DNA of 42,503 nucleotides. It comes from Aegotheles albertisi (Eukaryota). The notes beneath the pieces are model-generated. The model was not told the DNA's origin. It was given only the letters and a program-made list of their open reading frames with translations, and searched no databases. Position numbers and translations under genes: made by a program. Below, piece by piece: positions 3,641 to 42,503 of the stretch (position 1 is its first letter; each line of letters starts with the position of its first letter). The stretch covers positions 161,716 to 204,218 of the forward strand of contig JBDMAX010000536.1 of the NCBI GenBank assembly GCA_039906565.1. The letters are read 5' to 3'.

Positions 3641-3643
3641 ACT

Positions 3644-22395: not shown

Positions 22396-22630
22396 ATGAG
22401 GTCATTTCTGCCTGATGACGCCATGGGTGACATCACAGCCCCTTCCGCCCCACCATACCAGCCCCGCTGTGACATCACTCGTCCTGGGACCCGGCTGTTA
22501 ATGACCTCACAGTTCCCAACCCCCGCAGGGTTGTGACATCACAGCGTGCAGGACCCCACCCCAGGGGCGCGGGGGTGTCCTGAGCGGCGCTGAGCGCTGA
22601 CATCACGCCTTACATCACTATGACATCACA
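22396..22630. promoter_or_regulatory. Cluster of CRE-like TGACATCA octamers: 5 perfect copies and 2 near copies (TGAGGTCA, TGACCTCA) in ~235 bp, immediately 3' of the MVP polyA signal.
   Basis: TGACATCA at 22428, 22470, 22534, 22598, 22621. TGAGGTCA at 22396. TGACCTCA at 22502. Confidence 0.4.
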
Positions 22631-22651
22631 CCATCGCTTGCTGCCACCTCG

Positions 22652-22657
22652 CTTTAT
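22652..22657 (-). terminator. MVP: AATAAA polyadenylation signal of MVP (TTTATT on the plus strand), ~35 nt 3' of the stop codon.
   Basis: Canonical hexamer at the expected distance after the stop. Confidence 0.6.
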
Positions 22658-22690
22658 TGGGCTGGCGCCGGTTGCCATGGGGACGGGTCC

Positions 22691-22834
22691 TCAGGGGACG
22701 TGGTCGGGGGAGGTGGCACCGCTGGGGGGCTGGGTGAGCCCCAGCAGCCCCCGGGCGGTGGTGAAGAGGTTGAGGGGGGCGGTGCCGTCGGTGATGAGCG
22801 TTGACTGCAGCCCCAGCCCCTGCAGCAGCTTCAC
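22691..22834 (-). CDS. MVP: MVP last coding exon: [47 protein letters not shown].
   Basis: Matches human MVP ...[40 protein letters not shown]. Acceptor GGCAG|GTG. Stop TGA at 22691-22693. Confidence 0.85.
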
Positions 22835-22844
22835 CTGCCGGGAC

Positions 22845-23245
22845 CACTGCGCTGGCCACGCCCCCCCCGAGAGGCCACGCCCCCCCTTGAGACCCCGCCC
22901 CCAGTGGCAGCCACGCCCACAAAAGCCCCACCCCCTCCACAGAGACCCCACCTGAGGTCCTGCCCCTTCCAGGTGGCCACGCCCCCCCCGTGGCAGCCAC
23001 GCCCCCATTCATGGCTCCACCCCTTCCAGAAGGCCCTGGCCACGCCCCCACAGCTTAGATCCCCGCCCCCAAGGCCACGCCCCCACACAGCCCCACCCAG
23101 TCAAGGCCACGCCCCCATCCGAAGAGACCCCGCCCCCAGTGGCAGCCACACCCATAAAAGCCCCACCCCCTGTTAAGGCTCCGCCCCCTTCCAGATGGCC
23201 CCGCCCCCATGGCAGCCACACCCAGCCGAGGCCCCGCCCCCCCCC
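22845..23245. repeat. Array of ~20 GC/GT-box-like decamers ((G)GCCACGCCCCC / CCCCGCCCCC / CCCCACCCCC, ~20-27-bp period) filling the last MVP intron.
   Basis: Direct repetition. On the transcribed strand these read GGGGGCGTGG(C), an Sp/KLF-type box. Confidence 0.7.
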
Positions 23246-23250
23246 CTCAC

Positions 23251-23439
23251 CTGCAGCTCGGGCCCGGCGCGGGCGATGTCCCGGATGGTGTCGGGTCCCA
23301 GCGCCGCCACCACCTCCCGCACGCGCGAGGCCTCCACGTCCGCCAGCGCCTGCGCCCGCGCCGCCTCCGCCTCCGCCCGCGCCCGCTGCGCCCGCACCTC
23401 CTGCGCCTGCGCCCGCTCCAGCCGCGACAGCTCCGCCTC
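23251..23439 (-). CDS. MVP: MVP exon: [63 protein letters not shown] (cap-helix region).
   Basis: Matches human ...[25 protein letters not shown]. Acceptor CCCCCAG|G, donor CAG|GTGAGG. Confidence 0.85.
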
Positions 23440-23523
23440 CTGGGGGCGGGGCCGGACTCAGGACACGCCCCCTCCCGACTGGGGCGGGGCTAATGTTGGT
23501 CCCGCCCCCCAGCCCCCCCTCAC

Positions 23524-23650
23524 CGTCTCGATGGCGATGGCTTCGGCCTTCAGCTTGGCCTGCAGGATCGCGGCCTCCCCTTCGATGCGCGCGGCCTCCG
23601 CTCGCGCCTGCGCCTCCGCCCGCGCCGCCCCTGCGCTCTCCACCGCCGCG
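23524..23650 (-). CDS. MVP: MVP exon: (S)[42 protein letters not shown].
   Basis: Matches human [42 protein letters not shown]. Donor ACG|GTGAGG. Confidence 0.85.
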
Positions 23651-23674
23651 CTGGGGGGGTGGGCAGGACACGGG

Positions 23675-24000
23675 CCATGTGTCCCCAACCCCCCCAGAGT
23701 GTCCCCTGGGGGAGCAGGGACTGTCCCCAACCCCCCCAGAGTGTCCCCTGGGCGAGCAGGGACTGTCCCCAACCCCCCCAAAGTGTCCCCTGGGCGAGCA
23801 GGGACTGTCCCCAACCCCCCCAAAGTGTCCCCTGGGTGAGCAGGGACTGTCCCCAACCCCCCCAAAGTGTCCCCTGGGGGAGCAGGGACTGTCCCCAACC
23901 CCCCCAAAGTGTCCCCTGGGCGAGCAGGGACTGTCCCCAACCCCAAAGTGTCCCCTGGGGGAGCAGGGACTGTCCCCAACCCCCCCAAAGTGTCCCTTGG
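23675..24000. repeat. Intronic 42-bp minisatellite (GTCCCCTGGGGGAGCAGGGACTGTCCCCAACCCCCCCAGAGT), ~8 copies.
   Basis: Tandem periodicity. Confidence 0.9.
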
Positions 24001-24041
24001 GATGGGGCAGGAGCCCCGGTGCCTGTTGGGAAGATGCCGAC

Positions 24042-24158
24042 CTGAGAGCCTCCAGCTCCAGCAGTGCCCTGCGCGCCCGCTCAGCCTCCGCCTGGTCCAG
24101 GAGCCGCTGCCGCTCCAGGCGCCCGCGGGCCTCCTGCGCCAGCCGCTCCGCCTCTTGC
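24042..24158 (-). CDS. MVP: MVP exon: (R)[38 protein letters not shown](S).
   Basis: Matches human [39 protein letters not shown]. Acceptor CCCCAG|G, donor AG|GTCGGC. Confidence 0.85.
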
Positions 24159-24164
24159 CTGGGG

Positions 24165-24875
24165 ACACCGGGGGACACGGGGGGACACGGTGAGGGAATG
24201 GGGGAGCAGGGGACAGGGGGGTGTGGGGCGCATTTAGGGACACGAGGGACATGTGGGGGACATGGATGGACGCAGGGAGATCTGGTGATGTGGGGTGTTT
24301 GGGGACATGGGGGGGTGTGGGGGGACGTGGGAGGACACGGGGGACTGCGGGATGTGGGGGGGTGTCGGGGACTGTGGGATGTGGGGGGGTGTGGGGGAGC
24401 GTGGGGGGACGTGGGGGAGCATAGGGGGAAGTGGAGGGACGTGGTGGGATGTGGGGGAACATGGGACAGTGGGGCATGGGGGGATATGGTGGGGCATGGG
24501 GGGATATGGGGGGACATGAGGGGATATGGGGGGATATGGGGGGACATGGGGGGATATGGGGGGATATGGGGGGACATGGGGGGACATGGGGGGATATGGG
24601 GGGATATGGGGGGATATGGTGGGGCATGGGGGGATATGGGGGGACATGAGGGGATATGGGGGGATATGGGGGGACATGGTGGGGCATGGGGGGACATGGG
24701 GGGATATGGGGGGACTTGGGGGATGTGGAGGAGCGTGGGGGGACGTGGGAGGATGTGGTGGCAAGTGGGGGGACATGGGGGAGCATGGTGGGAAGTGGTG
24801 GGACGTGGAGGGACATGGGGGGACGTGGGGGGACATGGGGGGACATGGGGGGATGGAGGGGGAAGCGGGGGGCCA
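24165..24875. repeat. Intronic G-rich 20-21-bp minisatellite (GGGGGACATGGGGGGATATGG and variants), ~34 copies.
   Basis: Tandem periodicity. Confidence 0.9.
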
Positions 24876-24997
24876 TTTGGAGACACAAAGGACACCAAGT
24901 GGCCTCCTGGGCGCTAGCGTTGATCTCCAGGGACACAGGGGACAACACAGGAGGGACCTTGAGGGACAGGAGATGACACGGGGGGGGGCGTGAGGAC

Positions 24998-25209
24998 CTG
25001 GCAGCAGCCTCCTGGGAGTTGGTGGCGATCTCGATGGCCAACTGGACGCTGCGCTGCAGGGCGTCGCGGGTGCGCTGGTCCACGGGCTCCACGCTCTGGA
25101 TGTCCACGCTGGTCACCACCAGCCCATTGGGGGCGAAGCGGAGCTGCTCCCGCAGCCGCCCGGCCTCGTCGAAGCCAAACACGGCCGAGCAGATGAGACG
25201 GTTGGAGTT
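24998..25209 (-). CDS. MVP: MVP exon: [70 protein letters not shown].
   Basis: Matches human NSARIIRTAVFGFE...[43 protein letters not shown]. Acceptor TCCCCAG|AAC, donor AG|GTCCTC. Confidence 0.9.
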
Positions 25210-25537
25210 CTGGGGACAGCAGGGACGTGTGAGACACCTGGGGACATCAGGGTCACCTCCAGGATGGTGGGGACACACGAAGGATGGAGGGGAACTGGGG
25301 ACACGGGGGGATATCGCTGCCTCCATCAAAGCAGAACATGGTTGAGCAGAAGAGCTGATGGGGGTTCCTGGGCCATCAGGGCTGTGAAGGACACCTGGGG
25401 ACATCGGACACCGAGGGAGGCTCGAGGTGCCACAGGGTGAGACCCGGGGTGACCGTGGGCACCAGCGAGGGGGGCAGCGGCGCTCAGCCGAGGGGACGCG
25501 GTGGTGGGAAGGGACACCCGAGGGACACTGAGGAGAC

Positions 25538-25676
25538 CTTGTGGAAGTCATCGAAGGTGACGGCGGCCACGGCGCCGCGCACGCGGGAGGCCAAGGCCTT
25601 GCAGGCGTCGCCCACGAAGTCGGGGACACTGAAGAGGCGCCCAAGGGCCGCGGGGTCCTCCGGCACCTCGAAGTGC
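25538..25676 (-). CDS. MVP: MVP exon: (W)[46 protein letters not shown].
   Basis: Matches human [48 protein letters not shown]. Donor AAG|GTCTCC. Confidence 0.9.
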
Positions 25677-25681
25677 CTGGG

Positions 25682-26075
25682 GGGGTGGGGGAGATCCGGC
25701 CTCAGGGCCCCGCCCACCCTGGCCACGCCCACCCTGGCCCCGCCCACTGCCATGGCCACACCCCCTCACCGGGCCCCACCCCCTCACCCGGCCACGCCCA
25801 AGTGTGAGACCACGCCCCCCTTAACAGACCCCACCCCCTTCCAGACCACACCCCCAGGCTCCACCCCCACACCTGCGACCACGCCCCCTTCGTTGGCCAC
25901 ACCCCCAGGCCCCACCCCCTCCTCTGGCCCCGCCTTCACCACCAGACTCCACCCCCAAACATGAGGCCCCGCCCCCTCACCTGGCCCCACCCCTATCTCC
26001 CACACCCCCCCAAGGCCACTCCTCCTTTCTGGCCCCGCCCCCTGCCAGACTCCGCCCCCCAGCCCTAGGCCCCGC
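25682..26075. repeat. Second array of GC/GT-box-like decamers ((G)GCCACGCCCCC / CCCCGCCCAC / CCCCACCCCC), ~18 copies, filling an MVP intron.
   Basis: Direct repetition. Same family as 22845-23245. Confidence 0.7.
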
Positions 26076-26079
26076 CCAC

Positions 26080-26278
26080 CAGTTGTAGGCCAGCTGGAGC
26101 TGGAGCCGCGCGTGGTCGGCGGTCTCGATGGTGACGATGTCGGCGCAGAAGTCGGGGCCGAGGCGCAGGCAGAGGCTGCGGCGGGCGTGGGGGCGCTTGG
26201 GGCGCCCGGCCGAGAGCGACAGCACCGTCAGCTGCTCCCCGGGGCCCAGCACCACCAGCTCGGGGCCCAGCACCACCC
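26080..26278 (-). CDS. MVP: MVP exon: (R)[65 protein letters not shown](W).
   Basis: Matches human [67 protein letters not shown]. Acceptor CCGCAG|G, donor TG|GTGGGC. Confidence 0.9.
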
Positions 26279-26374
26279 TGCGGGACCACGGCGTCACCGG
26301 CGTCACCTCCCCTGTGGGGCCCGGAGCCACCGCACAGGGCCAAGGGACACGCGGGTGCCCACCAACACCTGGTG

Positions 26375-29300
26375 ACCCACCAAGGTCACACCCAAGGACA
26401 TCAGTGACACCCCAAGGCCATCAGTGACACCCCAAGGCCATCAGTCACACCAAGGTCACACCCAAGGACATCAGTGACACCCCAAGGCCATCGGTCACAC
26501 CAAGGTCACACCCAAGGACATCTGTGACACCCCAAGGCCATCGGTCACACCAAGGTCACACCCAAGGCCATCAGTGACACCCCAAGGCCATCGGTCACAC
26601 CAAGGTCACACCCAAGGACATCTGTGACACCCCAAGGCCATCGGTCACCCCAAGGTCACACCCAAGGACATCTGTGACACCCCAAGGCCATCGGTCACAC
26701 CAAGGTCACACCCCAAGGACATCAGTGACACCCCAAGGCCATCGGTCACACCCCAAGGCCATCGGTCACACCCCAAGGACATCTGTGACACCCCAAGGCC
26801 ATCAGTGACACCCCAAGGCCATCGGTCACACCAAGGTCACACCCAAGGACATCTGTGACACCTCAAGGCCATCAGTGACACCCCAAGGCCATCAGTGACA
26901 CCAAGGTCACACCCCAAGGACATCTGTGACACCCCAAGGCCATCGGTCACACCAAGGTCACACCCAAGGACATCTGTGACACCCCAAGGCCATCGGTCAC
27001 ACCAAGGTCACACCCAAGGACATCAGTGACACCCCAAGGCCATCGGTCACACCAAGGTCACATCCAAGGACATCAGTGACACCCCAAGGCCATCGGTCAC
27101 ACCAAGGTCACACCCAAGGCCATCAGTGACACCCCAAGGCCATCAGTCACACCAAGGTCACACCCAAGGACATCTGTGACACCCCAAGGCCATCAGTGAC
27201 ACCCCAAGGCCATCGGTCACACCAAGGTCACATCCAAGGACATCAGTGACACCCCAAGGCCATCGGTCACACCAAGGTCACACCCCAAGGACATCTGTGA
27301 CAGCCCAAGGACATCTGTGACACCCCAAGGCCATCAGTCACACCAAGGTCACACCCAAGGACATCTGTGACACCCCAAGGCCATCAGTGACACCAAGGTC
27401 ACACCCAAGGACATCAGTGACACCCCAAGGCCATCGGTCACACCAAGGTCACACCCCAAGGACATCTGTGACAGCCCAAGGACATCAGTGACACCCCAAG
27501 GCCATCGGTCACACCAAGGTCACACCCAAGGACATCAGTGACACCCCAAGGCCATCGGTCACACCAAGGTCACACCCAAGGACATCTGTGACACCCCAAG
27601 GCCATTGGTCACACCAAGGTCACACCCCAAGGACATCAGTGACACCCCAAGGCCATCGGTCACACCAAGGTCACCAATCACACCCCAAGGACAACATTCA
27701 AACACCAAGGCCACCAGTCACACCCAAGGACATCTGTGACACCCCAAGGCCATCGGTCACACCAAGGTCACACCCAAGGACATCTGTGACACCCCAAGGC
27801 CATCGGTCACACCAAGGTCACACCCCAAGGACATCAGTGACACCCCAAGGCCATCGGTCACACCAAGGTCACACCCAAGGACATCTGTGACACCCCAAGG
27901 CCATTGGTCACACCAAGGTCACATCCAAGGACATCTGTGACACCTCAAGGCCATCAGTCACACCCCAAGGACATCAGTGACACCCCAAGGCCATCAGTCA
28001 CACCAAGGTCACACCCCAAGGATATCTGTGACACCCCAAGGCCATCAGTCACACCAAGGTCACACCCCAAGGACATCTGTGACACCCCAAGGCCATCAGT
28101 CACACCAAGGTCACACCCAAGGACATCAGTGACACCCCAAGGCCATCGGTCACACCAAGGTCACACCCCAAGGACATCTGTGACACCTCAAGGCCATCGG
28201 TCACACCAAGGTCACACCCAAGGACATCAGTGACACCCCAAGGCCATCAGTGACACCAAGGTCACATCCAAGGACATCTGTGACACCCCAAGGCCATCGG
28301 TCACACCAAGGTCACACCCAAGGACATCTGTGACACCCCAAGGTCATCGGTCACACCAAGGTCACACCCAAGGACATCTGTGACACCCCAAGGCCATCGG
28401 TCACACCAAGGTCACACCCAAGGACATCTGTGACACCCCAAGGTCATCGGTCACACCAAGGTCACACCCAAGGACATCTGTGACACCCCAAGGCCATCGG
28501 TCACACCAAGGTCACACCCAAGGACATCAGTGACACCCCAAGGCCATCGGTCACACCAAGGTCACACCCAAGGACATCTGTGACACCCCAAGGCCATCGG
28601 TCACACCAAGGTCACACCCAAGGCCATCAGTGACACCCCAAGGCCATCGGTCACACCAAGGTCACACCCAAGGACATCAGTGACACCCCAAGGCCATCAG
28701 TGACACCAAGGTCACACCCCAAGGACATCTGTGACACCCCAAGGCCATCGGTCACACCAAGGTCACACCCAAGGACATCTGTGACACCCCAAGGCCATCG
28801 GTCACACCAAGGTCACACCCAAGGACATCTGTGACACCCCAAGGCCATCGGTCACACCAAGGTCACACCCCAAGGACATCAGTGACACCCCAAGGCCATC
28901 GGTCACACCAAGGTCACACCCCAAGGACATCAGTGACACCCCAAGGCCATCAGTGACACCAAGGTCACACCCAAGGACATCTGTGACACCCCAAGGCCAT
29001 CGGTCACACCAAGGTCACACCCCAAGGACATCTGTGACACCCCAAGGCCATCGGTCACACCAAGGTCACACCCAAGGCCATCAGTGACACCCCAAGGCCA
29101 TCGGTCACACCAAGGTCACACCCAAGGCCATCTGTGACACCCCAAGGCCATCGGTCACACCAAGGTCACACCCAAGGACATCAGTGACACCCCAAGGCCA
29201 TCGGTCACACCAAGGTCACACCCAAGGACATCAGTGACACCCCAAGGCCATCGGTCACACCAAGGTCACACCCAAGGACATCAGTGACACCCCAAGGCCA

Positions 29301-29825
29301 TCGGTCACACCAAGGCCACACCCCAAGGACATCTGTGACACCCCAAGGCCATCGGTCACACCAAGGTCACACCCCAAGGCCATCAGTGACACCCCAAGGC
29401 CATCAGTCACACCAAGGTCACATCCAAGGACATCAGTGACACCCCAAGGCCATCAGTGACACCAAGGTCACACCCCAAGGCCATCAGTGACACCCCAAGG
29501 CCATCAGTCACACCAAGGTCACATCCAAGGACATCTGTGACACCCCAAGGACATCAGTCACACCAAGGTCACATCCAAGGACATCTGTGACACCCCAAGG
29601 CCATCAGTCACACCAAGGTCACATCCAAGGACATCTGTGACACCCCAAGGCCATCGGTCACACCAAGGTCACACCCAAGGACATCTGTGACACCCCAAGG
29701 CCATCAGTCACACCAAGGTCACACCCAAGGACATCAGTGACACCCCAAGGCCATCGGTCACACCAAGGTCACCAATCACACCCCAAGGCCATCGGTCACA
29801 CCCAAGGCCATTGGTCACAGTCAAG
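26375..29825. repeat. Intronic ~50-bp minisatellite (CAAGGTCACA CCCAAGGACATCAGTGACAC CCCAAGGCCATCGGTCACAC; internal 20-bp subunits), ~68 copies over 3.4 kb. It is C/A-rich on the plus strand, so the pre-mRNA is G-rich.
   Basis: Tandem periodicity. Confidence 0.9.
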
Positions 29826-29884
29826 GAAGGACCCCCATGTGCACGGGTGTCACAGCCATGTCCCTGGTGTCCCCCCCTGCTCAC

Positions 29885-30135
29885 CGCGCCCGCCGCTCCC
29901 GGTAGTCGTAGACCTGCACGGCGGCGTTGTGGGGCACCTGGTAGGTGACGGCGCGCGTGCGGTCGCGCTGGGGGACGCCGGTGTCGGCGCTGGTGGCAGG
30001 GGACCCCCCGAGGTCGGCGCCGCGGGTGTCCCCACGGGCATCGGCCAGCAGGGCCTCCACGGCGGGGGGCAGCTCCTTCTCCCACAGCTCCTCGGCCGCC
30101 GTCAGCAGGTACGCCTGGCCCGTCACCACCCGCAC
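29885..30135 (-). CDS. MVP: MVP exon: [83 protein letters not shown](R).
   Basis: Matches human [82 protein letters not shown]. Acceptor CCCCGGTGCAG|G, donor CG|GTGAGC. Confidence 0.9.
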
Positions 30136-30139
30136 CTGC

Positions 30140-31075
30140 ACCGGGGACACAGCCACCGCGGGCACTGGGGGCACTGGGACGGGCTGGGGAACGGGAGGGG
30201 GCACAGGGGGACTGGGAGGGGGCTGGGGGAAATGGGAGGGGGCACAGGGGTACTGGGAGGGGGCACTGGGGGAAATGGGAGTGGGCTGGGGGAAATGGGA
30301 GTGGGCTGGGGGGAATGGGAGGGGGCACAGGGGTACTGGGAGGGGGGACTGGGGGAAATGGGAGTGGGCTGGGTGGAATGGGAGTGGGCACAGGGGCAAT
30401 GAGGGCACTGGAGTAGGCACAGAGGCACTGGGATGGGGACTGGGGGCAATGGGAGGGGACACTGGGCGCAATGGGAGGGGCACTGGGGGTACTGGGATGG
30501 GACCTGGGGGCACTAGAGGGGTGTGGGGGGAATGGGAGGGGGCGTGGGGGCACTGGGAGGGGGCACTGGGGGCAATGGGATAGGGACTGGGGGCAATGGG
30601 AGGGGCGTGGGGGGGACGGGAGGAGAACTGGGGGGGAATGGGAGGGGGCGTGGGGGCACTGGGATGGGGCTGGGGGAATGCGAGGGGGCACAAGGGCAAT
30701 AGGAGGGGGCATGGGGGCACTGGGAGGGGGCTGGGGGTACTGGGAGGGTGCATGGGGGCAATGAGGGCACTGGAGCAGGCACAGAGGCACTGGGATGGGG
30801 ACTGGGGGCACTGGGATGGGGACTGGGGGCACTGGAGGGGTGCAGGGGAATGGGAGAGGGTGCAGGGGCACTGGGAGCGGAACTGGGGGGAATGGGAGGG
30901 GGCATGGAGGCACTGGGAGAGGGCCTGGGGGCACTGGGAGGGGGCACTGGGGACACTGGGAGGGTGCACGGGGACACTGGGAGAGGAACTGGGAGTACTG
31001 GGAAGGGCTGCGTGGGATATTGGGAGCACTGGGAGGGGAGCTGAGAGACTGGGATTTTGTTTGGGGTCCCTGGGA
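30140..31075. repeat. Intronic G-rich minisatellite (GGGCACTGGGAGGGGGCACTGGGGGAAATGGGAG-type, ~30-bp units).
   Basis: Tandem periodicity. Confidence 0.85.
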
Positions 31076-33995
31076 TCTGACACATGGGATACTGGGGGGC
31101 AGTGGGGGGATACTGGGGGGCAGCGGGGGGGTACTGGGGGGCAGTGGGGGGATACTGGGGGGCAGTGGGGGGGTACTGGGGGGCAGTGGGGGGATACTGG
31201 GGGGCAGCGGGGGATACTGGGGGGCAGTGGGGGGGTACTGGGGGGCAGTGGGGGGGTACTGGGAGGCAGCGGGGGGATACTGGGGTGCAGCGGGGGGATA
31301 CTGGGGGGCAGTGGGGGGATACTGGGGTGCAGCGGGGGGATACTGGGATGGGGTTTCCGGTCACTGGGAGCACTGGGAGGGGAGCTGAGAGACTGGGATT
31401 TTGTTTGGGGTCCCTGGGATCTGACACATGGGATACTGGGAGGCAGTGGGGGGATACTGGGGGGCAGCGGGGGGGTACTGGGAGGCAGTGGGGGGATACT
31501 GGGGGGCAGCGGGGGATACTGGGGGGCAGTGGGGGGTACTGGGGGGCAGTGGGGGGGTACTGGGAGGCAGCGGGGGGATACTGGGGTGCAGCGGGGGGAT
31601 ACTGGGGGGCAGTGGGGGGATACTGGGCTGCAGCGGGGGGATACTGGGATGGGGTTTCCGGTCACTGGGAGCACTGGGAGGGGAGCTGAGAGACTGGGAT
31701 TTTGTTTGGGGTCCCTGGGATCTGACACATGGGATACTGGGAGGCAGTGGGGGGATACTGGGGGGCAGCGGGGGGGTACTGGGAGGCAGCGGGGGGGTAC
31801 TGGGGGGCAGTGGGGGGGTACTGGGGGGCAGCGGGGGGATACTGGGGGGCAGTGGGGGGATACTGGGGGGCAGCGGGGGGATACTGGGAGGCAGCGGGGG
31901 GGTACTGGGAGGCAGCGGGGGGGTACTGGGAGGCAGTGGGGGGATACTGGGGGGCAGTGGGGGGGTACTGGGGGGCAGCGGGGGGATACTGGGATGGGGT
32001 TTCCGGTCACTGGGAGCACTGGGAGGGGAGCTGAGAGACTGGGATTTTGTTTGGGGTCCCTGGGATCTGACACATGGGATACTGGGAGGCAGTGGGGGGA
32101 TACTGGGGGGCAGCGGGGGATACTGGGGGGCAGTGGGGGGGTACTGGGAGGCAGCGGGGGGATACTGGGGTGCAGCGGGGGGATACTGGGGGGCAGCGGG
32201 GGGATACTGGGGGGCAGTGGGGGGGTACTGGGGTGCAGCGGGGGGATACTGGGGGGCAGCGGGGGATACTGGGGGGCAGTGGGGGGGTACTGGGGGGCAG
32301 TGGGGGGGTACTGGGAGGCAGCGGGGGGATACTGGGGTGCAGCGGGGGGATACTGGGGGGCAGTGGGGGGATACTGGGGTGCAGCGGGGGGATACTGGGA
32401 TGGGGTTTCCGGTCACTGGGAGCACTGGGAGGGGAGCTGAGAGACTGGGATTTTGTTTGGGGTCCCTGGGATCTGACACATGGGATACTGGGAGGCAGTG
32501 GGGGGATACTGGGGGGCAGCGGGGGGGTACTGGGAGGCAGTGGGGGGATACTGGGGGGCAGCGGGGGATACTGGGGGGCAGTGGGGGGGTACTGGGGGGC
32601 AGTGGGGGGGTACTGGGAGGCAGCGGGGGGATACTGGGGTGCAGCGGGGGGATACTGGGGGGCAGTGGGGGGATACTGGGCTGCAGCGGGGGGATACTGG
32701 GATGGGGTTTCCGGTCACTGGGAGCACTGGGAGGGGAGCTGAGAGACTGGGATTTTGTTTGGGGTCCCTGGGATCTGACACATGGGATACTGGGAGGCAG
32801 TGGGGGGATACTGGGGGGCAGCGGGGGGGTACTGGGAGGCAGCGGGGGGGTACTGGGGGGCAGCGGGGGGATACTGGGGGGCAGCGGGGGGATACTGGGA
32901 GGCAGCGGGGGGTACTGGGAGGCAGTGGGGGGATACTGGGGGGCAGTGGGGGGATACTGGGGGGCAGTGGGGGGGTACTGGGGGGCAGCGGGGGGATACT
33001 GGGATGGGGTTTCCGGTCACTGGGAGCACTGGGAGGGGAGCTGAGAGACTGGGATTTTGTTTGGGGTCCCTGGGATCTGACACATGGGATACTGGGAGGC
33101 AGTGGGGGGATACTGGGGGGCAGCGGGGGATACTGGGGGGCAGTGGGGGGGTACTGGGAGGCAGCGGGGGGATACTGGGGTGCAGCGGGGGGATACTGGG
33201 GGGCAGCGGGGGGATACTGGGAGGCAGTGGGGGGATACTGGGAGGCAGCGGGGGGATACTGGGGGGCAGCGGGGGGGTACTGGGATGGGGTTTCCGGTCA
33301 CTGGGAGCACTGGGAGGGGAGCTGAGAGACTGGGATTTTGTTTGGGGTCCCTGGGATCTGACACATGGGATACTGGGGGGCAGTGGGGGGATACTGGGGG
33401 GCAGCGGGGGGGTACTGGGAGGCAGCGGGGGGATACTGGGGGGCAGTGGGGGGATACTGGGGGGCAGCGGGGGGATACTGGGATGGGGTTTCCGGTCACT
33501 GGGAGCACTGGGAGGGGAGCTGAGAGACTGGGATTTTGTTTGGGGTCCCTGGGATCCGACACATGGGATACTGGGGGGCAGTGGGGGGGTACTGGGGGGC
33601 AGTGGGGGGATACTGGGGGGCAGCGGGGGATACTGGGGGGCAGTGGGGGGATACTGGGAGGCAGTGGGGGGATACTGGGAGGCAGCGGGGGGATACTGGG
33701 GGGCAGCGGGGGGATACTGGGATGGGGTTTCCGGTCACTGGGAGCACTGGGAGGGGAGCTGAGAGACTGGGATTTTGTTTGGGGTCCCTGGGATCCGACA
33801 CATGGGATACTGGGAGGCAGTGGGGGGATACTGGGGGGCAGCGGGGGATACTGGGGGGCAGTGGGGGGGTACTGGGAGGCAGTGGGGGGATACTGGGGGG
33901 CAGTGGGGGGGTACTGGGAGGCAGTGGGGGGATACTGGGAGGCAGCGGGGGGATACTGGGATGGGGTTTCCGGTCACTGGGAGCACTGGGGGGGG
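31076..33995. repeat. Intronic G-rich 20-21-bp minisatellite (GGGATACTGGGGGGCAGTGGG) organised into higher-order repeats (~200-400 bp). The units are separated by a conserved ~95-bp spacer (GGATGGGGTTTCCGGTCACTGGGAGCACTGGGAGGGGAGCTGAGAGACTGGGATTTTGTTTGGGGTCCCTGGGATCTGACACATGGGATACTGG), ~10 spacer copies.
   Basis: Tandem periodicity. The spacer recurs at ~31021, 31347, 31646, 31991, 32395, 32700, 33002, 33286, 33482, 33722, 33962. Confidence 0.9.
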
Positions 33996-34045
33996 GTTGT
34001 GGGGGGTTGGGGTGCCCAAGGGGTGCCCGGGAGGGGTGGTGGCAC

Positions 34046-34204
34046 CTTCCCGGTGCGGATGTCCCGCACGTAGATGCCCTCGTTGTCGGCCAGGGCCACC
34101 GCCCGGCGTCGCTCCAGCACGGCCACCTCGGCCGGTGGCACGAACTCCAGGGGACCCCGGGCCAGCCAGCGGTCGCCCGCCCGCCGCGTCACCTCCGTGC
34201 CCTC
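34046..34204 (-). CDS. MVP: MVP exon: [53 protein letters not shown].
   Basis: Matches human [51 protein letters not shown]. Acceptor CTGCCAG|G, donor AAG|GTGCCA. Confidence 0.9.
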
Positions 34205-34482: not shown

Positions 34483-34608
34483 CTCATCGGTGTCCTTGAT
34501 GGTCTGGAGTGCCTGGAGCAGCAGCCCCTCGTCCTCGGAGAGCACGAAGACGTCCTCGATGCCAGCCTGGAGCCGCTCGCCCGGCTGCAGGAAGAAGGAC
34601 TTCTCCCC
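34483..34608 (-). CDS. MVP: MVP exon: [42 protein letters not shown].
   Basis: Matches human [43 protein letters not shown]. Acceptor CCCCAG|GGG, donor GAG|GTGGCC. Confidence 0.9.
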
Positions 34609-35219: not shown

Positions 35220-35456
35220 CTTGACAACGCGCTGCTGGCCCAGCTGGGGCTGCCCGTTGGGTCCCACCGGGTCCAGGATGACGCAGTACTGCCGGGGACC
35301 CAGCGTCGTCACCGCCACCTCGGCCACCACCTCCTCGAAGACGTCCGGGATGTAGGCTTCGCTCTGCTCGTGGGTCACCAGCCACTCCTCGCCCGTGCGC
35401 CGCACCCGGCCCTGCTCGTCCTCGAAGGTCCGCGTCGCGCGCAAGTGCAGGGCTTT
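35220..35456 (-). CDS. MVP: MVP exon: [79 protein letters not shown].
   Basis: Matches human [79 protein letters not shown]. Acceptor CTGGCAG|AAA, donor AAG|GTGGGC. Confidence 0.9.
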
Positions 35457-35564
35457 CTGCCAGGGGGGGACACGCGGTGGGCGTTGGGACACCCCAACAG
35501 GTCCCATCACCCAGGGGTGCAGGGAGATGGAGAGATGGCACCACCCAAACCAACCCTTGAGGGA

Positions 35565-36265
35565 CCTCATTGCATGTGGGGACAGGGGTGGGGTGGGTGG
35601 AGAGGACACCACGCCCTGGAGGGCCCTTGTGGGACACGGGACCCCCAAGAGCTCGGGAGGGTCCTCACCACCCATGGGCACAAGGGGTCAGAGCCTTGGA
35701 GGATCAGGTGGTGGTGGGACCCTTCACCCATCCCTGGAGGGTCCTCACCACCCATGGGCACAAGGGGTCAGAGTCTTGGAGGATCAGGTGGTGGTGGGAC
35801 CCTTCACCCACCCCTGGAGGGTCCTCACCACCCATGGGCACAAGGGGTCAGAGCCTTGGAGGTTCAGGTGGTGGTGGGACCCTTCACCCACCCCTGGAGG
35901 GTCCTGGTCACCCATGGGAGCAGGGGAATGGTGACACGGGACCCCCAAGAGCTCGGGAGGGTCCTCACCACCCATGGGCACGAGGGGTCAGAGTCTTGGA
36001 GGACCAGGTGGTGGTGGGACCCTTCACCCATCCCTGGAGGGTCCTCACCACCCATGGGCACAAGGGGTCAGAGCCTTGGAGGTTCAGGTGGTGGTGGGAC
36101 CCTTCACCCACCCCTGGAGGGTCCTTGTCACCCATGGGAGCAGGGGAATGGTGACACGGGACCCCCAAGAGCTCGGGAGGGTCCTCACCACCCATGGGCA
36201 CGAGGGGTCAGAGTCTTGGAGGATCAGGTGGTGGTGGGACCCTTCACCCACCCCTGGAGGGTCCT
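35565..36265. repeat. Intronic 80-bp minisatellite (~9 copies). Its unit resembles the acceptor site plus the 5' part of the downstream exon at 36323-36417, making it a pseudo-exon array.
   Basis: Unit (minus strand) CCCCTTGTGCCCATGGGTGGTGAGGACCCTCCAGGGATGGGTGAAGGG... compared with the authentic CCCTGTGCCCAG|GTGAGGAGTGGCTGGTGAAGCAGG. The 80-bp period was measured directly. Confidence 0.8.
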
Positions 36266-36322
36266 GGTCACCCCAGGAGGGGTCTCAGCACCCCAGGGCC
36301 CCCAGGAGCAGGTGCCCCACAC

Positions 36323-36417
36323 CTTCTCGGTCAGGATGTAGGCGTCCACGACGTCCACCACCTCCTCGTAGACCCCGGGCAGGTAGGCACCCACCTGCTT
36401 CACCAGCCACTCCTCAC
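36323..36417 (-). CDS. MVP: MVP exon: (G)[31 protein letters not shown].
   Basis: Matches human [32 protein letters not shown]. Acceptor TGCCCAG|GT, donor AAG|GTGTGG. Confidence 0.9.
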
Positions 36418-36439
36418 CTGGGCACAGGGGCACAGGGCT

Positions 36440-38255
36440 GGGTAGGGGTCCCCTATAGCCCCTCACAGCCCCTATAGCCCCCCCCACAGCCCCCTATAGT
36501 CCCCTATAGCCCCTCACAGCCCCTATAGCCCCCCCACAGCCCCCTATAGCCCCTCACAGCCCCCTATAGCCCCCCCACAGCCCCCTATAGCCCCTCATAG
36601 CCCCTATAGCCCCCCCACAGCCCCCTATAGCCCCCACAGCCCCTATAGCCCCTCACAGCCCCTATAGCCCCCACAGCCCCTATAGCCCCTCACAGCCCCC
36701 TATAGCCCCTCATAGCCCCTATAGCCCCTCATAGCCCCTTATAGCCCCTCACAGCCCCTATAGCCCCCCCCCAGCCCCTATAGCCCCTCATAGCCCCTAT
36801 AGCCCCTCACAGCCCCCTATAGCCCCTCATAGCCCCTATAGCCCCTCATAGCCCCCTATAGCCCCTCATAGCCCCCATAGCCCCCCCCCAGCCCCCTATA
36901 GCTCCCCACAGCCCCCTATAGCCCCCCCATGGCTTCCTATAGCCCCTCATAGCCCCTATAGCCCCTCATAGCCCCCATAGCCCCCCCCAGCCCCTATAGC
37001 TCCCCACAGCCCCCTATAGCCCCCCCATGGCTTCCTATAGCCCCTCATAGCCCCTATAGCCCCTCATAGCCCCTATAGCCCCTCACAGCCCCCTATAGCC
37101 CCTCATAGCCCCTATAGCCCCTCACAGCCCCCTATAGCCCCTCATAGCCCCTATAGCCCCCCCATGGCTTCCTATAGCCCCTCATAGCCCCTATAGCCCC
37201 TCACAGCCCCCTATAGCCCCTCATAGCCCCTATAGCCCCTCACAGCCCCCTATAGCCCCTCACAGCCCCTATAGCCCCCCACAGCCCCATATAGCCCCCC
37301 CATGGCCCCCTCTACCCCTCACAGCTGCCTATAGCCCCCTCACAGTCTCCTATAGACCCCCCATGGATCCCTATAGCCCCCCCATGCCCCCTATAGCCTT
37401 CTCTCCAGCCCCCTATAGCCCCCCATGGCCCCTATAGCCCCTCCTGCCCAGCAACTTATAGCCCCCACAGCCCCCTATAGCTCCCCACAGCCCCTATAGC
37501 CTCCCACAGCCCCCTATAGCCCCTATAGCCTCCCACAGCCCCCTACAGCCCCTCATAGCCCCTATAGCCTCTCATAGCCCCTATAGCCCCTCATAGCCCC
37601 TATAGCCCCTCATAGTCCCCTATAGCCCCTCATAGCCCCTATAGCCCCTCACAGCCCCCTATAGCCTCTCATAGCCCCTATAGCCCCTCATAGCCCCTAT
37701 AGCCTCTCACGGCCCCCTATAGCCCCTCATAGCCCCTATAGCCCCTCACAGCCCCTATAGCCCCTCATAGCCCCTATAGCCCCTCACAGCCCCTATAGCC
37801 CCCCCACGGCTTCCTATAGCCCCTCATAGCCCCCTATAGCCCCTCACAGCCCCCTATAGCCCCTCATAGCCCCTATAGCCCCCCCATGGCTTCCTACAGC
37901 CCCTCATAGCCCCTATAGCCTCTCACAGCCCCCTATAGCCCCTATAGCCCCTCATAGCCCCTATAGCCTCTCACAGCCCCCTATAGCCCCTCACAGCCCC
38001 TATAGCCTCCCACAGCCCCCTATAGCCCCTCATAGCCCCTATAGCCCCTCACAGCCCCCTATAGCCCCTCATAGCCCCTATAGCCCTCATAGCCCCCTAT
38101 AGCCCCTATAGCCCCTCATAGCCCCTATAGCCCCTCACAGCCCCTATAGCCCCTCATAGCCCCTATAGCCCCCCCACGGCTTCCTATAGCCCCTCATAGC
38201 CCTTATAGCCCCTCACAGCCCCCTATAGCCCCTCACGGCCCCCTATAGCCCCCCC
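36440..38255. repeat. Intronic C-rich 20-22-bp minisatellite (CCCCTATAGCCCCTCACAGCC / CCCCTATAGCCCCTCATAGCC), ~85 copies.
   Basis: Tandem periodicity. An inverted copy of the same family occurs at 40670-40950. Confidence 0.9.
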
Positions 38256-38259
38256 AGCC

Positions 38260-40225
38260 ACCTCCACCCCCCCGTACCCCCCTGTCCCCCCCCTGTAACG
38301 GTGACCCTGCGGGTGCCCCCCTGTCCCCCCCCCTGTACCGGTGACCCTGCGGGTGCCCCCCCATGCCCCCGTCCCCCCGACCCTGTGGGTGCCCCCCCTG
38401 TCCCCCCCCGTACCGGTGACCCTGTGGGTGCCCCCCCCTGTCCCCCCCCTGTCCCCGTGACCCTGCGGGTGCCCCCCCATCCCCCCCCCGTACCGGTGAC
38501 CCTGCGGGTGCCCCCCCATCCCCCCTGTCCCAGTGACCCTGCGGGTGCCCCCCCATCCCCCCCCCCGTACCGGTGACCCTGCGGGTGCCCCCCCCATCCC
38601 CCCCCCTGTACCGGTGACCCTGCGGGTGCCCCCCCTGTCCCCCCCCTGTACCAGTGACCCTGCGGGTGCCCCCCCGTCCCCCCCTGTCCCAGTGACCCTG
38701 CGGGTGCCCCCCCGTCCCCCCCTGTCCCAGTGACCCTGTGGGTGCCCCCCCATCCCCCCCCCCGTACCGGTGACCCTGTGGGTGCCCCCCTGTCCCCCCC
38801 CTGTACCGGTGACCCCGTGGGTGCCCCCCCCTGTCCCCCCTGTACCGGTGACCCTGTGGGTGCCCCCCCCATCCCCCCCATACCGGTGACCCTGTGGGTG
38901 CCCCCCCTGTCCCCCCCTGTCCCAGTGACCCTGTGGGTGCCCCCCCTGTCCCCCCCCTGTACCGGTGACCCTGTGGGTGCCCCCCCGTCCCCTCCCGTCC
39001 CGGTGACCCTGTGGGTACCCCCCATCCCCTCCCGTCCCGGTGACCCTGTGGGTGCCCCCCATCCCCCCTGTACCGGTGACCCTGCGGGTACCCCCCGTCC
39101 CCCCCCTGTACCGGTGACCCTGTGGGTGCCCCCCCATTCCCCCCCTGTACCGGTGACCCTGTGGGTGCCCCCCTGTCCCCCCTGTCCCAGTGACCCTGCG
39201 GGTACCCCCCCATCCCCCCGTACCGGTGACCCTGCGGGTGCCCCCCTGTCCCCCCCTGTCCCAGTGACCCTGCGGGTGCCCCATCCCCCCCCCTGTACCG
39301 GTGACCCTGTGGGTGCCCCCCTGTCCCCCCCCTGTCCCAGTGACCCTGCGGGTACCCCCCTGTCCCCCCCCGTACCGGTGACCCTGTGGGTGCCCCCCTG
39401 TCCCCCCCCTGTCCCAGTGACCCTGTGGGTGCCCCCCCTGTCCCCCCCCCTGTACCGGTGACCCTGTGGGTACCGCCAGTCCCCCCCCTGTCCCAGTGAC
39501 CCTGTGGGTGCCCCCCTGTCCCCCCCTGTACCGGTGACCCTGCGGGTGCCCCCCTTGTCCCCCCCCCGTCCCGGTGACCCTGCGGGTGCCCCCCCTGTCC
39601 CAGTGACCCTGTGGGTGCCCCCCCTGTCCCCCCCTGTCCCAGTGACCCTGCGGGTGCCCCCCCATCCCCCCTGTCCCAGTGACCCTGCGGGTGCCCCCCT
39701 GTCCCCCCCCTGTCCCAGTGACCCTGTGGGTGCCCCCCCATCCCCCCTGTCCCAGTGACCCTGCGGGTGCCCCCCTGTCCCCCCCCTGTCCCAGTGACCC
39801 TGTGGGTGCCCCCCCCATCCCCCCCTGTCCCAGTGACCCTGCGGGTGCCCCCCTGTCCCCCCCCTGTCCCAGTGACCCTGTGGGTGCCCCCCCCATCCCC
39901 CCCTGTACCGGTGACCCTGTGGGTACCCCCTGTCCCCCCCCCGTACCGGTGACCCTGCGGGTGCCCCCCCTGTCCCCCCCTGTCCCAGTGACCCTGCGGG
40001 TGCCCCCCTGTCCCCCCCCTGTACCGGTGACCCTGTGGGTGCCCCCCCATCCCCCCCCCTGGTACCGGTGACCCTGCGGGTGCCGCCAGTCCCCCCCTGT
40101 ACCGGTGACCCTGCGGGTGCCCCTCCCTGTCCCCCCTGGTACCGGTGACCCTGCGGGTGCCCCCCTGTCCCCCCTGTCCCAGTGACCCTGTGGGTACCCC
40201 CCCATCCCCCTGTACCGGTGACCCT
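38260..40225. repeat. Intronic 37-38-bp minisatellite (ACCGGTGACCCTGCGGGTGCCCCCCTGTCCCCCCCTGT), ~52 copies. It was amplified from the 3' end and 5' splice site of the adjacent MVP exon, so each unit carries CACCG|GTACAG or the variant CACTG|GGACAG.
   Basis: The exon at 40216-40347 ends ...CGCAGGGTCACCG|GTACAG. The array units on the transcribed strand read CACCCGCAGGGTCACCGGTACAGGGGGG(GA)CAGGGGGG. Confidence 0.9.
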
Positions 40226-40347
40226 GCGGGTGCCGTGCCGGTCCCGGCTCTCCTTGCGTGCCCGCAGCCGGATGGCCTGGTTGTGCCCGATGACGGTGCC
40301 CTGCAGCGTCTCCACCACCGCCACCTCCTTCCGCGGGACGTAGGTGC
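40216..40347 (-). CDS. MVP: MVP exon: (G)[43 protein letters not shown](G).
   Basis: Matches human [45 protein letters not shown]. Acceptor CCCCCCAG|GC, donor CCG|GTACAG. Confidence 0.9.
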
Positions 40348-40437
40348 CTGGGGGGCTGCGCGGTCACCACGGGCTGTGTCCCCCCCCCGGCCCCTGGCTG
40401 TGTCCCCCCCGCCCCGGGCTGTGTCCCCGCTGCTCAC

Positions 40438-40561
40438 CGGGACCCTCGAAGAGCCACTCGTCCCCCGCCACCACTTTCTGGCCACCCTCGTCCGTGAAGT
40501 CCAGCAGGGCCCGGAGGCGCAGGGCGGTGTCGGCCACGAGCACCTGGAGCGGGGTCACCCC
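40438..40561 (-). CDS. MVP: MVP exon: [41 protein letters not shown](G). This is the 5'-most MVP exon inside the window; the N-terminal ~110 codons lie beyond 42503.
   Basis: Matches human [41 protein letters not shown]. Acceptor TGTCCGCAG|GGG, donor CCG|GTGAGC. Confidence 0.9.
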
Positions 40562-40669
40562 CTGCGGACACGGGGGGAGCTCAGGGGACCCCCTGGGGAC
40601 CCCCTGGGGACACGGGGACAGCTCAGGGGACCCCCTGGGAACCCCCTGGGAACCCCCTGGGGACATGGG

Positions 40670-40950
40670 GGGGGGCTGTAGGGGCTGGGAAGGGGCTATA
40701 AGAGGCCATGAGGGGCTATAGGGGGCTGTGAGGGGGCTATAGGGGGCTATAGGGGGCTATAGGGGGCTATAGGGGGCTGTGAGGGGGCTATAGGGGGCTG
40801 TGAGGGGCATTGGAGGCCATAGGGGGGCTATAGGGGGCTGTGAGGGGGCTGTGAGGGGCATTGGAGGCCGTAGGGGGGCTATAGGGGGCTGTGAGGGGGC
40901 TATAGGGGCCCGTGGAGGGCTATAGGGAGCCATGGGGGGGGCTATAGGGA
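40670..40950. repeat. G-rich 20-22-bp minisatellite (GGGCTATAGGGGGCTGTGAGG). It is the inverted complement of the 36440-38255 array family.
   Basis: GGGGCTGTGAGGGGGCTATAGGGGG is the reverse complement of CCCCCTATAGCCCCCTCACAGCCCC. Confidence 0.85.
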
Positions 40951-42480
40951 GTTATGAGATTCTATAGGGGGCCCTGGAGGACTGTAGGTGTTGGGGGGGG
41001 GGCTATAACAGGCTGTCGGGCTTATGGGGCCTATAGGAGTTGTAGGGCCCATAGGGGTTGTAGGACCTATAGGGGTCATGGGGCCATAGGGGTCACAGAG
41101 CCTATAGGGGTCATGGGGCCTATAGGGGTTATGGGGCCTATAGGGGTCATGGTGCCTATAGGGGTTATGGGGCCATAGGGGTCACGGTGCCTATACGGGT
41201 TATGGTGCCTATAGGGGTCATGGATCCTATAGGGGTCACGGTGCCTATAGGGGTCATGGTGCCTATAGGGGTCACGGTGCCTATAGGGGTCATGGTGCCT
41301 ATAGGGGTCATGGTGCCTATAGGGGTCATGGGGCCTATAGGGGTTATGGATCCTATAGGGGTCATGGTGCCTATAGGGGTCATGGAGTCTATAGGGGTTA
41401 TGGTGCCTATAGGGGTCATGGTGCCTATAGGGGTTATGGGGCCATAGGGGTCACGGTGCCTATAGGGGTCACGGGGCCTATAGGGGTTATGGATCCTATA
41501 GGGGTCATGGATCCTATAGGGGTCACGGTGCCTATAGGGGTCACGGTGCCTATAGGGGTTATGGTGCCTATAGGGGTCACGGTGCCTATAGGGGTTATGG
41601 ATCCTATAGGGGTTATGAATCCTATAGGGGTCACGGTGCCTATAGGGGTCATGGTGCCTATAGGGGTTATGAATCCTATAGGGGTCACGGTGCCTATAGG
41701 GGTCACGGTGCCTATAGGGGTTATGGATCCTATAGGGGTTATGGGGCCTATAGGGGTCATGGTGCCTATAGGGGTTATGGGGCCATAGGGGTTATGGGGC
41801 CTATAGGGGTTATGGTGCCTATAGGGGTTATGGATCCTATAGGGGTCACGGTGCCTATAGGGGTCACGGTGCCTATAGGGGTCACGGTGCCTATAGGGGT
41901 TATGGATCCTATAGGGGTCATGGATCCTATAGGGGTCATGGTGCCTATAGGGGTCATGGGGCCTATAGGGGTCATGGGGCCATAGGGGTCACGGTGCCTA
42001 TAGGGGTCATGGATCCTATAGGGGTTATGAATCCTATAGGGGTCATGGATCCTATAGGGGTCATGGATCCTATAGGGGTCACGGTGCCTATAGGGGTCAC
42101 GGTGCCTATAGGGGTTATGGTGCCTATAGGGGTTATGGATCCTATAGGGGTTATGAATCCTATAGGGGTCACGGTGCCTATAGGGGTCATGGTGCCTATA
42201 GGGGTTATGAATCCTATAGGGGTCACGGTGCCTATAGGGGTCACGGTGCCTATAGGGGTTATGGAACCTATAGGGGTCATGGTGCCTATAGGGGTCACGG
42301 TGCCTATAGGGGTCATGGAGCCTATAGCGGTTATGGATCCTATAGGGGTTATGGATCCTATAGGGGTCACGGTGCCTATAGGGGTCATGGTGCCTATAGG
42401 GGTCATGGATCCTATAGGGGTCATGGTGCCTATAGGGGTCACGGTGCCTATAGGGGCTATAGGGGTCTATAGGGGTCACG
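40950..42480. repeat. G-rich 18-bp minisatellite (CCTATAGGGGTCATGGTG / CCTATAGGGGTTATGGAT variants), ~85 copies. It is related to the CTATAGGGG family.
   Basis: Tandem periodicity. It lies in the MVP intron upstream of the exon at 40438-40561. Confidence 0.9.
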
Positions 42481-42503
42481 GGGCCGCACCTGCTGGATCT
42501 CCT

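Follow-up and report, generated by a model that had tools for sequence, protein, structure and literature searches.

An intact MVP gene with introns inflated by tandem arrays in Aegotheles albertisi

Introduction

How can a gene encode an intact and well conserved protein when most of its length is made of short sequences repeated in tandem? The question is raised by a stretch of 42,503 nucleotides of the bird Aegotheles albertisi (assembly GCA_039906565.1, contig JBDMAX010000536.1, positions 161,716 to 204,218 of the forward strand), hereafter called the window, whose right part (positions 22630-42503; 19,874 bases) carries most of the MVP gene on the minus strand. An earlier note, made from the letters of the window alone, had described this gene as one whose introns are built almost entirely from minisatellites. 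The answer that we favour, at a probability of about 80%, is that local tandem duplication, the "sequence stuttering" of dot-microchromosome euchromatin, has inflated the larger introns of an intact bird MVP gene. The architecture is thus an instance of a known avian phenomenon and is not peculiar to MVP.

The gene between the arrays

Fourteen exons of 95-251 nt were rebuilt on the minus strand, all those that had been predicted, and direct reading of the junctions showed that each of the 13 introns between them starts with GT and ends with AG, with consistent phases throughout. In the order of the transcript, exon 1 (40438-40561, 124 nt), which corresponds to about residues 109-149 of the human protein, is bounded by the acceptor ...tgtccgcag/GGGGTG and the donor CCCG/gtgagc (a slash marks the junction here and below), and is followed by exon 2 (40216-40347, 132 nt), exon 3 (36323-36417, 95 nt), exon 4 (35220-35456, 237 nt), exon 5 (34483-34608, 126 nt), exon 6 (34046-34204, 159 nt), exon 7 (29885-30135, 251 nt), exon 8 (26080-26277, 198 nt), exon 9 (25538-25676, 139 nt), exon 10 (24998-25209, 212 nt), exon 11 (24042-24158, 117 nt), exon 12 (23524-23650, 127 nt), exon 13 (23251-23439, 189 nt) and exon 14, the last coding one (22691-22834, 144 nt including the stop codon). 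The joined frame of 2,250 nt encodes 749 residues and ends with TGA at 22693-22691; 35 nt past it, the polyadenylation signal AATAAA can be read from the sequence on the same strand (22653-22658).

A human MVP sequence served only as a guide for locating the exons, and the identity of the gene was evaluated by PDB and Pfam searches. The 749-residue product aligns with human MVP 109-852 in a single collinear alignment of 1068 bits, and Vault (218.9 bits), Vault_2, Vault_4, Vault_3 and MVP_shoulder (168.3 bits) are all matched above their Pfam cut-offs. Since the human alignment begins at residue 109, the first 108 residues or so must lie past the end of the window (base 42503). Identity is 90-92% to neognath MVPs, 85-86% to those of paleognaths and about 73% to those of reptiles. 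The highest identity to any database MVP is 92%, and among the neognath orders listed none is clearly closer to the window protein than the others (90-92%); no passerine MVP was found among the best 120 database matches, though many other bird orders are present there. The coding sequence of the 14 exons is very rich in GC (0.732 overall, 0.947 at third codon positions, hereafter GC3). The locus is therefore the 3' three-quarters of an intact bird MVP orthologue, and both the exons and the splice junctions of the earlier note have stood up to inspection.

Tandem arrays fill the larger introns

How much of the gene is repetitive? Tandem Repeats Finder (TRF) returned 85 rows for the whole window. 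In the MVP region it covers 15,047 of the 19,874 bases if all rows are counted and 14,451 if only rows with at least three copies are, namely 73-76%, while in five dinucleotide shuffles it covers only 0-88 bases. The earlier estimate of about 17 of 20 kb, or roughly 85%, was thus somewhat high, the actual amount being 14.5-15.0 kb. In this region the merged rows form eleven array blocks (108-3,421 bp), with units of 10-80 bp, 65-98% matches and periods of 42, 10, 50, 21/63/83, 21/42/302, 80/220, 19/39, 39, 41/51 and 18/36/54 bp, which bears out the claim of more than eight distinct minisatellite arrays.

The blocks are intronic, as had been claimed, and each is confined to a single intron: no exon is crossed by an array and the frame is intact. 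Within the exons TRF marks only the final 19 nt of exon 2 and, in exon 13, 77 nt of GCG-rich coding sequence for Ala, Arg and Glu. Taken together, the 13 complete introns consist of tandem repeat to 80%; however, arrays do not dominate almost every intron, as had been thought, but six of the 13 (introns 2, 6 and 7 at 95-99%, introns 3, 10 and 11 at 69-82%) together with the upstream intron cut by the window end (98%). In introns 1, 4, 5, 8, 9, 12 and 13, which measure 84-611 bp, TRF found no array of three or more copies.

Going down the transcript, the truncated upstream intron holds an array of about 81 copies with periods of 18, 36 and 54 bp (41024-42485; unit GGGCCTATAGGGGTCATA; 85-87% matches; G-rich on the plus strand). 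Next come a 41/51-bp array (GGGGGCTATAGGGGGCTGTGAG...; 40670-40951) and a 42-bp duplication of 2.2 copies that spans the exon-1 acceptor (40557-40664). Intron 2 is divided between a 39-bp array of about 51 units and 83% matches in its 5' half (38277-40234) and a 19/39-bp array of about 94 copies of CCCCTATAGCCCCTCACAG in its 3' half (36450-38263); the latter is C-rich on the plus strand and so G-rich in the transcript. Intron 3 has an 80-bp array with a higher order of 220 bp and 96-98% matches (35656-36265). Intron 6 contains two arrays, one of 21/42 bp organised in a 302-bp higher-order repeat and G-rich on the plus strand (31086-33995), the other of 21/63/83 bp with the sense motif CTCCCAGTGC(C/T)CCCAG (30160-31026), which ends 24 nt before the exon-7 acceptor. 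Intron 7 is filled by 67 copies of a 50-bp unit (26391-29811; 88% matches), intron 10 has about 56 copies of the 10-bp unit GGGGACATGG (24301-24853), and intron 11 has 7.7 copies of a 42-bp unit at 95% matches (23680-24001).

Strand polarity alternates along these arrays as the earlier note had noticed, the GC skew per array along the plus strand being -0.20, +0.81, -0.32, +0.64/+0.61, +0.09, -0.65/-0.37 and +0.65/+0.39. Its expectation of strong G-quadruplex (G4) potential agrees with the dense motifs, 105 on the plus and 91 on the minus strand of the 19.9 kb (196 in total), nearly all of them within arrays; it does not hold for the 3.4-kb array of 50-mers, which has no G4 motif on either strand. 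Formation of G4 structures or R-loops over the arrays is plausible by analogy; for R-loops the best candidates would be introns 2 and 11, with their G-rich sense strand. The GC-box decamer GGGGCGKGGC, also pointed out earlier, was confirmed with 13 matches against 1.15 expected; nine of the 13 form a cluster in intron 13 (22855-23240), all on the sense (minus) strand. A search of Rfam gave no match inside the MVP region. Open reading frames through the arrays, up to 773 amino acids long, were considered as coding and rejected: all three frames are open, as expected of stop-free G/C-rich units.

Where the arrays came from

The clearest answer comes from intron 2, where the start of the 39-bp array lies within exon 2, 19-20 nt from its 3' end, so that the last ~20 nt of the exon and the GT donor form its first unit. 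On the sense strand the exon ends with ...GGCACCCGCAGGGTCACCG/GTACAGGGGG, and the array is this junction repeated about 51 times. An exact 18-nt copy of the junction, GGGTCACCG/GTACAGGGG, is kept in 14 of the units, and 19 units carry CACTGGGACAG, in which the GT is lost. When each exon was compared with every intron by BLASTN, the last 30 nt of exon 2 gave 35 copies in intron 2 and none in the other introns, and no copy of any other exon was found in any intron. Chicken, ptarmigan, gull, cuckoo, emu, ostrich and turtle all conserve the end of exon 2 and all lack the 39-bp array; it is thus the exon that is the source, and the array is specific to the lineage. In the qualitative sense of the term, the 39-bp array is "exon stuttering" of the exon-2/donor junction. 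The exon-1 acceptor has likewise been copied, by the small 42-bp duplication, which leaves a look-alike acceptor, gtgtccccag/ggggt, 42 nt upstream of the authentic one. The 80-mer of intron 3 in turn matches single-copy sequence in intron 3 of gull and cuckoo. At least two arrays were therefore seeded from local sequence, one from the exon-2/donor junction and one from a stretch of intron 3.

Is it possible, instead, that the arrays are copies of minisatellite or satellite families dispersed through the genome, which landed in the introns? Two families invite this thought. That of CTATAGGGG occurs twice in opposite orientations, the array at 40670-40951 being an inverted copy of the one at 36450-38263 (89% over 118 bp by BLASTN), and it has weak matches in emu, ostrich, gull and cuckoo that fall in flanks and in introns other than the orthologous ones; that of CCCAGTGCTCCCAG has, besides its copies in intron 6, a second site 1.5 kb downstream of MVP (18704-21180). 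Yet between species the shared families match at only 65-73% identity and in low-complexity sequence, the 39-bp array springs from exon 2, and the 80-mer derives from orthologous single-copy intron sequence. Moreover, an all-against-all BLASTN comparison found the remaining arrays of the window to be mutually unrelated, apart from neighbouring blocks and the inverted pair. With only this one related pair besides the neighbours, the idea of a single family everywhere was discarded, and an origin of the arrays from dispersed families in general is unlikely.

By this recurrence in inverted orientation, exons 1 and 2 are bracketed by inverted arrays. It is to be mentioned that such copies on either side of the two exons could pair across them in the pre-mRNA.

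MVP in other birds and a turtle

Is the inflated gene an oddity of one species? The comparison with orthologous loci that the earlier note had proposed was made with MVP and its flanks from emu, ostrich, cuckoo, gull, turtle, chicken and ptarmigan, in each of which the 14 exons could be mapped in order. Between exons 1 and 14 the window has 15,621 bp of intron with a tandem-repeat share of 0.80. Emu (L003: 22,016 bp; share 0.85; GC3 0.987) and ostrich (L005: 15,609 bp; 0.77; 0.979) are equally inflated, whereas the gene is compact in cuckoo (9,009 bp; 0.24; GC3 0.88), gull (7,890 bp; 0.05; 0.884), turtle (6,471 bp; 0.21; 0.90), chicken (5,427 bp; 0.15; 0.715) and ptarmigan (5,421 bp; 0.19; 0.733). 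The three most compact bird loci contain no N, and the difference between species is therefore not simply one of gaps. The architecture, which had been called unusual for a compact gene, thus remains unusual beside these five species, with 5.4-9.0 kb of intron and 5-24% tandem repeat, but not beside emu and ostrich. Across the eight species inflation tracks GC3, which is 0.947-0.987 in the inflated genes and 0.72-0.90 in the five compact ones.

The three inflated genes are alike in that their 14 exons are separated by introns of 77-85% repeat in emu and ostrich and 80% in the window, with introns 2, 6 and 7 among the largest, in that GC3 exceeds 0.94, and in that an array of the CTCCCAGTGCYCCCAG motif abuts the exon-7 acceptor. 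They differ in that nearly all introns are inflated in emu and ostrich compared with six of 13 in the window, in that intron 2 of emu and ostrich is not built from the exon-2 junction, and in that the units of most other introns are unrelated to those of the window.

Several observations were made on the surroundings of these loci. The emu and ostrich orthologues are on records of 3.3 and 4.8 Mb, and the compact chicken gene starts 8 kb from the start of a chromosome record of 4.98 Mb. A kinesin gene (KIF22-like) and a TLC-domain gene are neighbours of MVP in emu and ostrich, a Robl/LAMTOR-like gene and a gamma-glutamyltranspeptidase gene in cuckoo, and a PHD/G2E3-like gene in chicken and ptarmigan.

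Old seeds and young arrays

Although most units differ between species, some do not. The array at 30160-31026, with its sense motif CTCCCAGTGCYCCCAG, matches arrays of emu and ostrich that share its position and orientation (70-73% over 550-950 bp). In chicken, ptarmigan, gull and cuckoo too, the final 300 nt of intron 6 are full of the motif in degenerate form. In these last 300 nt, CCCAGT occurs 4-14 times in the other birds against 0.12-0.25 expected, and 8 times in the window against 1.3 expected. A CCCAGT-rich seed upstream of exon 7 is therefore present in all seven birds examined and absent in turtle. The 10-mer motif of intron 10 has counterparts in intron 10 of emu, gull and cuckoo. 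For the 50-mer of intron 7, on the other hand, no counterpart was found in any orthologous locus examined. Some arrays are thus young and private, and others have grown from seeds older than the split of living birds.

Intron 8 may add a third example of a persistent seed, a cluster of GC boxes, next to those of introns 6 and 10; only two short matches link the window with emu here. In emu, intron 8 contains a 1.1-kb array (31712-32838 of the locus) whose unit has GC boxes (GGGGGCGGGGCTTGGCC). Intron 8 of the window has two exact GGGGCGKGGC boxes and small GC-rich repeats of 15-18 bp, and the short matches are to other parts of emu intron 8.

Such persistence could also mean that the arrays are functional parts kept by selection, be it as recombination hotspots, as G4- or R-loop-based tuners of transcription or as regulators of splicing. 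The seed beside exon 7, far above expectation in every bird and missing from turtle, points in this direction, as do the recurrence of arrays or motifs in orthologous introns 6 and 10 and the very high density of G4 motifs; Smeds et al. have raised alternative splicing and recombination as possible roles. However, five of the seven other species manage with 5-24% tandem repeat in the same introns, the largest single-unit array, that of the 50-mer, has neither an orthologous counterpart nor a G4 motif, and unit sequences differ between species in most introns. A pyrimidine-rich motif beside an acceptor would also be expected from the constraint on the polypyrimidine tract combined with a shared mutational bias. 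Selection for function is thus quite an improbable explanation of the arrays as a whole.

Sequence stuttering and dot chromosomes

What, then, is the known phenomenon to which this gene belongs? Hron et al. (2026; Genome Biol Evol, PMC12954441) described "sequence stuttering", defined in chicken, as general among genes in the GC-rich euchromatin of avian dot chromosomes. In some cases an exon edge has been copied, splice site included, into the intron next to it, and of the dot-chromosome introns 86% differ in length from one chicken to another. Hron et al. mention KAT8, PPP4C and ALDOA, genes of the 16p11.2 type on chromosome 38, state that interspersed repeats are absent from dot-chromosome euchromatin, and view the expansions as independent and recent. 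The likeness to the window is close: imperfect repeats of tens of bases fill the introns, each intron having its own array or arrays that stop at the exons; the coding sequence is intact and very GC-rich; an exon edge is copied together with its splice site; and orthologous introns differ between species. Differences are that the exon part copied in the window is short (~20-30 nt) and that, where PMC12954441 stresses independent and recent expansions, MVP has some seeds common to all birds examined.

Two papers on the telomere-to-telomere genome of zebra finch (bioRxiv 10.1101/2025.10.14.682431, 10.1101/2025.10.17.683159) report that minisatellites make up 51% of dot-chromosome euchromatin and that over 70% of the intron sequence there is tandem repeat, with units that are often multiples of 10-11 bp and contain G4 and direct-repeat motifs. 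MVP introns in the window agree with this in exceeding 70% repeat and in having G4 and direct-repeat motifs inside the arrays. With regard to the 10-11 bp rule the periods of the window are divided: those of 10, 21, 41, 42 and 50-51 bp fit it, those of 18/36/54, 19/39, 57 and 80 bp fit it poorly. One large array of the window is devoid of G4 motifs.

Two other kinds of vertebrate tandem repeat resemble the arrays in part. Human G-rich hypervariable minisatellites such as CEB1 and MS32 also have units of 10-60 bp, asymmetry of G and C between strands, G4 potential and a growth and shrinkage associated with recombination, but they are isolated and mostly subtelomeric, whereas eleven arrays lie in this one gene and occupy most of its length. 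CNM and PO41, the GC-rich tandem repeats of about 41 bp on microchromosomes of chicken (Galliformes), are comparable in period, which is 41-42 bp three times in the MVP region and once downstream at 18704-21160; these satellites form very long heterochromatic blocks of a single family, unlike the intron-bounded, mostly unrelated arrays of 0.3-3.4 kb in the window.

If this gene has been inflated by stuttering, the following course may be proposed. In the euchromatin of avian dot microchromosomes, which is GC-rich and recombines at a high rate, local tandem duplication of short sequences (10-80 bp) would inflate the larger introns, with exons and splice sites conserved. From the papers cited above and from what is generally known of minisatellites, arrays would then lengthen and shorten through slippage at replication, unequal exchange, or gene conversion between units that are misaligned. 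They would be tolerated as by-products, neutral or mildly costly, rather than as functional elements; splicing would still use the authentic sites, and the lengths of the arrays are expected to be polymorphic, as was shown for stuttering introns of chicken (PMC12954441).

Some points do weigh against inflation by stuttering. The location of the locus on a dot chromosome is putative, by analogy with the studies above. MVP was not found in the text of PMC12954441 or in the searchable text of its supplement, and in chicken, the species in which stuttering was defined, the gene is compact. The left half of the window has only 17% tandem repeat and carries fragments of the CR1 family, interspersed repeats of a kind that dot-chromosome euchromatin is reported to lack (PMC12954441). 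The best exon-only BLASTN score of the exon-2 copies is 39.2 bits, below the screen cut-off of 42.1 bits in PMC12954441, though settings may differ between the two analyses and the copied part of the exon is only ~20-30 nt long. Finally, not every array is strictly local, since two motif families recur, either at a further site or in inverted orientation.

Could the arrays, or at least their sizes, be artefacts of assembly, in which repeats were expanded, collapsed or wrongly joined? G-rich minisatellites of this kind depress PacBio coverage and assemble poorly (bioRxiv 10.1101/2025.10.14.682431, 10.1101/2025.10.17.683159), and PMC12954441 warns that local variation can be technical. The window, however, contains no N, all 14 exons are found in order and in frame between the arrays, and the arrays show ordinary variant structure and higher-order repeats. 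The independent emu and ostrich assemblies have arrays in the same introns and the same motif at the exon-7 acceptor, and Nanopore reads have confirmed such introns in chicken (PMC12954441). An artefact is hence very unlikely. A reading of the locus as a pseudogene in decay, or as a paralogue whose introns are free to bloat, for which speak only the unusual intron content and a 5' end outside the window, is hardly credible for 749 codons with no stop among them, with GT and AG at all 13 introns, a stop codon and AATAAA in place, an undisrupted frame at 90-92% identity to bird MVPs over the full length and every Pfam domain of MVP above threshold.

The rest of the window

Downstream of MVP, two minus-strand frames have domain matches, one (13444-13878) to the C-terminal portion of the UCH ubiquitin-hydrolase domain (E 1e-15), the other (9044-9433) to the end of the RhoGAP domain (E 1.3e-10). 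Other genes therefore follow MVP on the same strand; a neighbouring frame of this strand (14043-14399) has no Pfam match. The RhoGAP and UCH fragments are bracketed by a direct duplication (8548-8847 and 15136-15435; 98% identical, 6,588 bp apart), perhaps a segmental duplication or a pair of long terminal repeats. The frames that start at 8821 and 15409 have about 95 residues in common, and the two copies therefore extend over at least ~560 bp. A long minus-strand frame rich in strings resembling Arg/Ser dipeptides contains a 216-bp tandem duplication at 11579-12058 (2.2 copies, 75% matches); the frame has no Pfam match.

The box C/D snoRNA SNORD45 is present in two copies on the plus strand (2154-2238 and 3738-3822; 54 and 58 bits, gathering score 42), which sit in a direct duplication of 97% identity whose copies are 1,584 bp apart (2047-2346 and 3631-3930). 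Two G-rich arrays also lie outside MVP: 22 copies of a 57-mer at 6153-7423 (95% matches), and about 60 copies of a 41-mer at 18704-21180 whose motif is the CCCAGTGCTCCCAG seen in intron 6 of the window gene and in the intron-6 arrays of emu and ostrich. Three stretches (about 2980-3813, 12785-13200 and 21380-22400) match other bird loci at multiple places, in several frames and on both strands, with peptide strings typical of the 3' ends of CR1 long interspersed elements. When the left half of the window was searched for neighbour genes shared with the flanks of six orthologous loci, only such CR1-like fragments matched, in several frames and on both strands, and synteny could accordingly not place the window.

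What the MVP introns may tell us

It is tempting to go one step further. Stuttering may be more than recent noise in single species: it may act on seeds that are fixed in position, that have persisted for some 100 million years beside splice sites because they are kept for splicing, and whose arrays reshape the choice of splice sites. This thought comes from the CTCCCAGTGCYCCCAG seed, present in every bird examined and grown into arrays of about 1 kb in at least three lineages, with the motif of intron 10 as a second example; we regard it as speculative and rather doubtful. If it were true, the seeds might serve splicing, for instance as an extended pyrimidine- and AG-rich acceptor region; the ~14 intact look-alike donors after exon 2 could matter for splice choice; and the inverted arrays around exons 1 and 2, by pairing in the pre-mRNA, could favour exon skipping or back-splicing.

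Taken alone, the finding matters little: the phenomenon was published in 2025-2026, and one more gene, well resolved, now joins it. What it offers is a conserved 14-exon frame on which birds can be compared intron by intron. In this comparison one and the same gene ranges from compact to inflated three- to four-fold, according to lineage and in parallel with GC3. The 39-bp array is a clear-cut instance of an exon/donor junction giving rise to an array, with about 14 exact decoy donors left behind. A new detail is that some seeds of the arrays predate the split of living birds, which qualifies the published view of independent and recent expansions. MVP is thus a convenient locus at which to study how splicing proceeds through such introns and how fast their arrays turn over.

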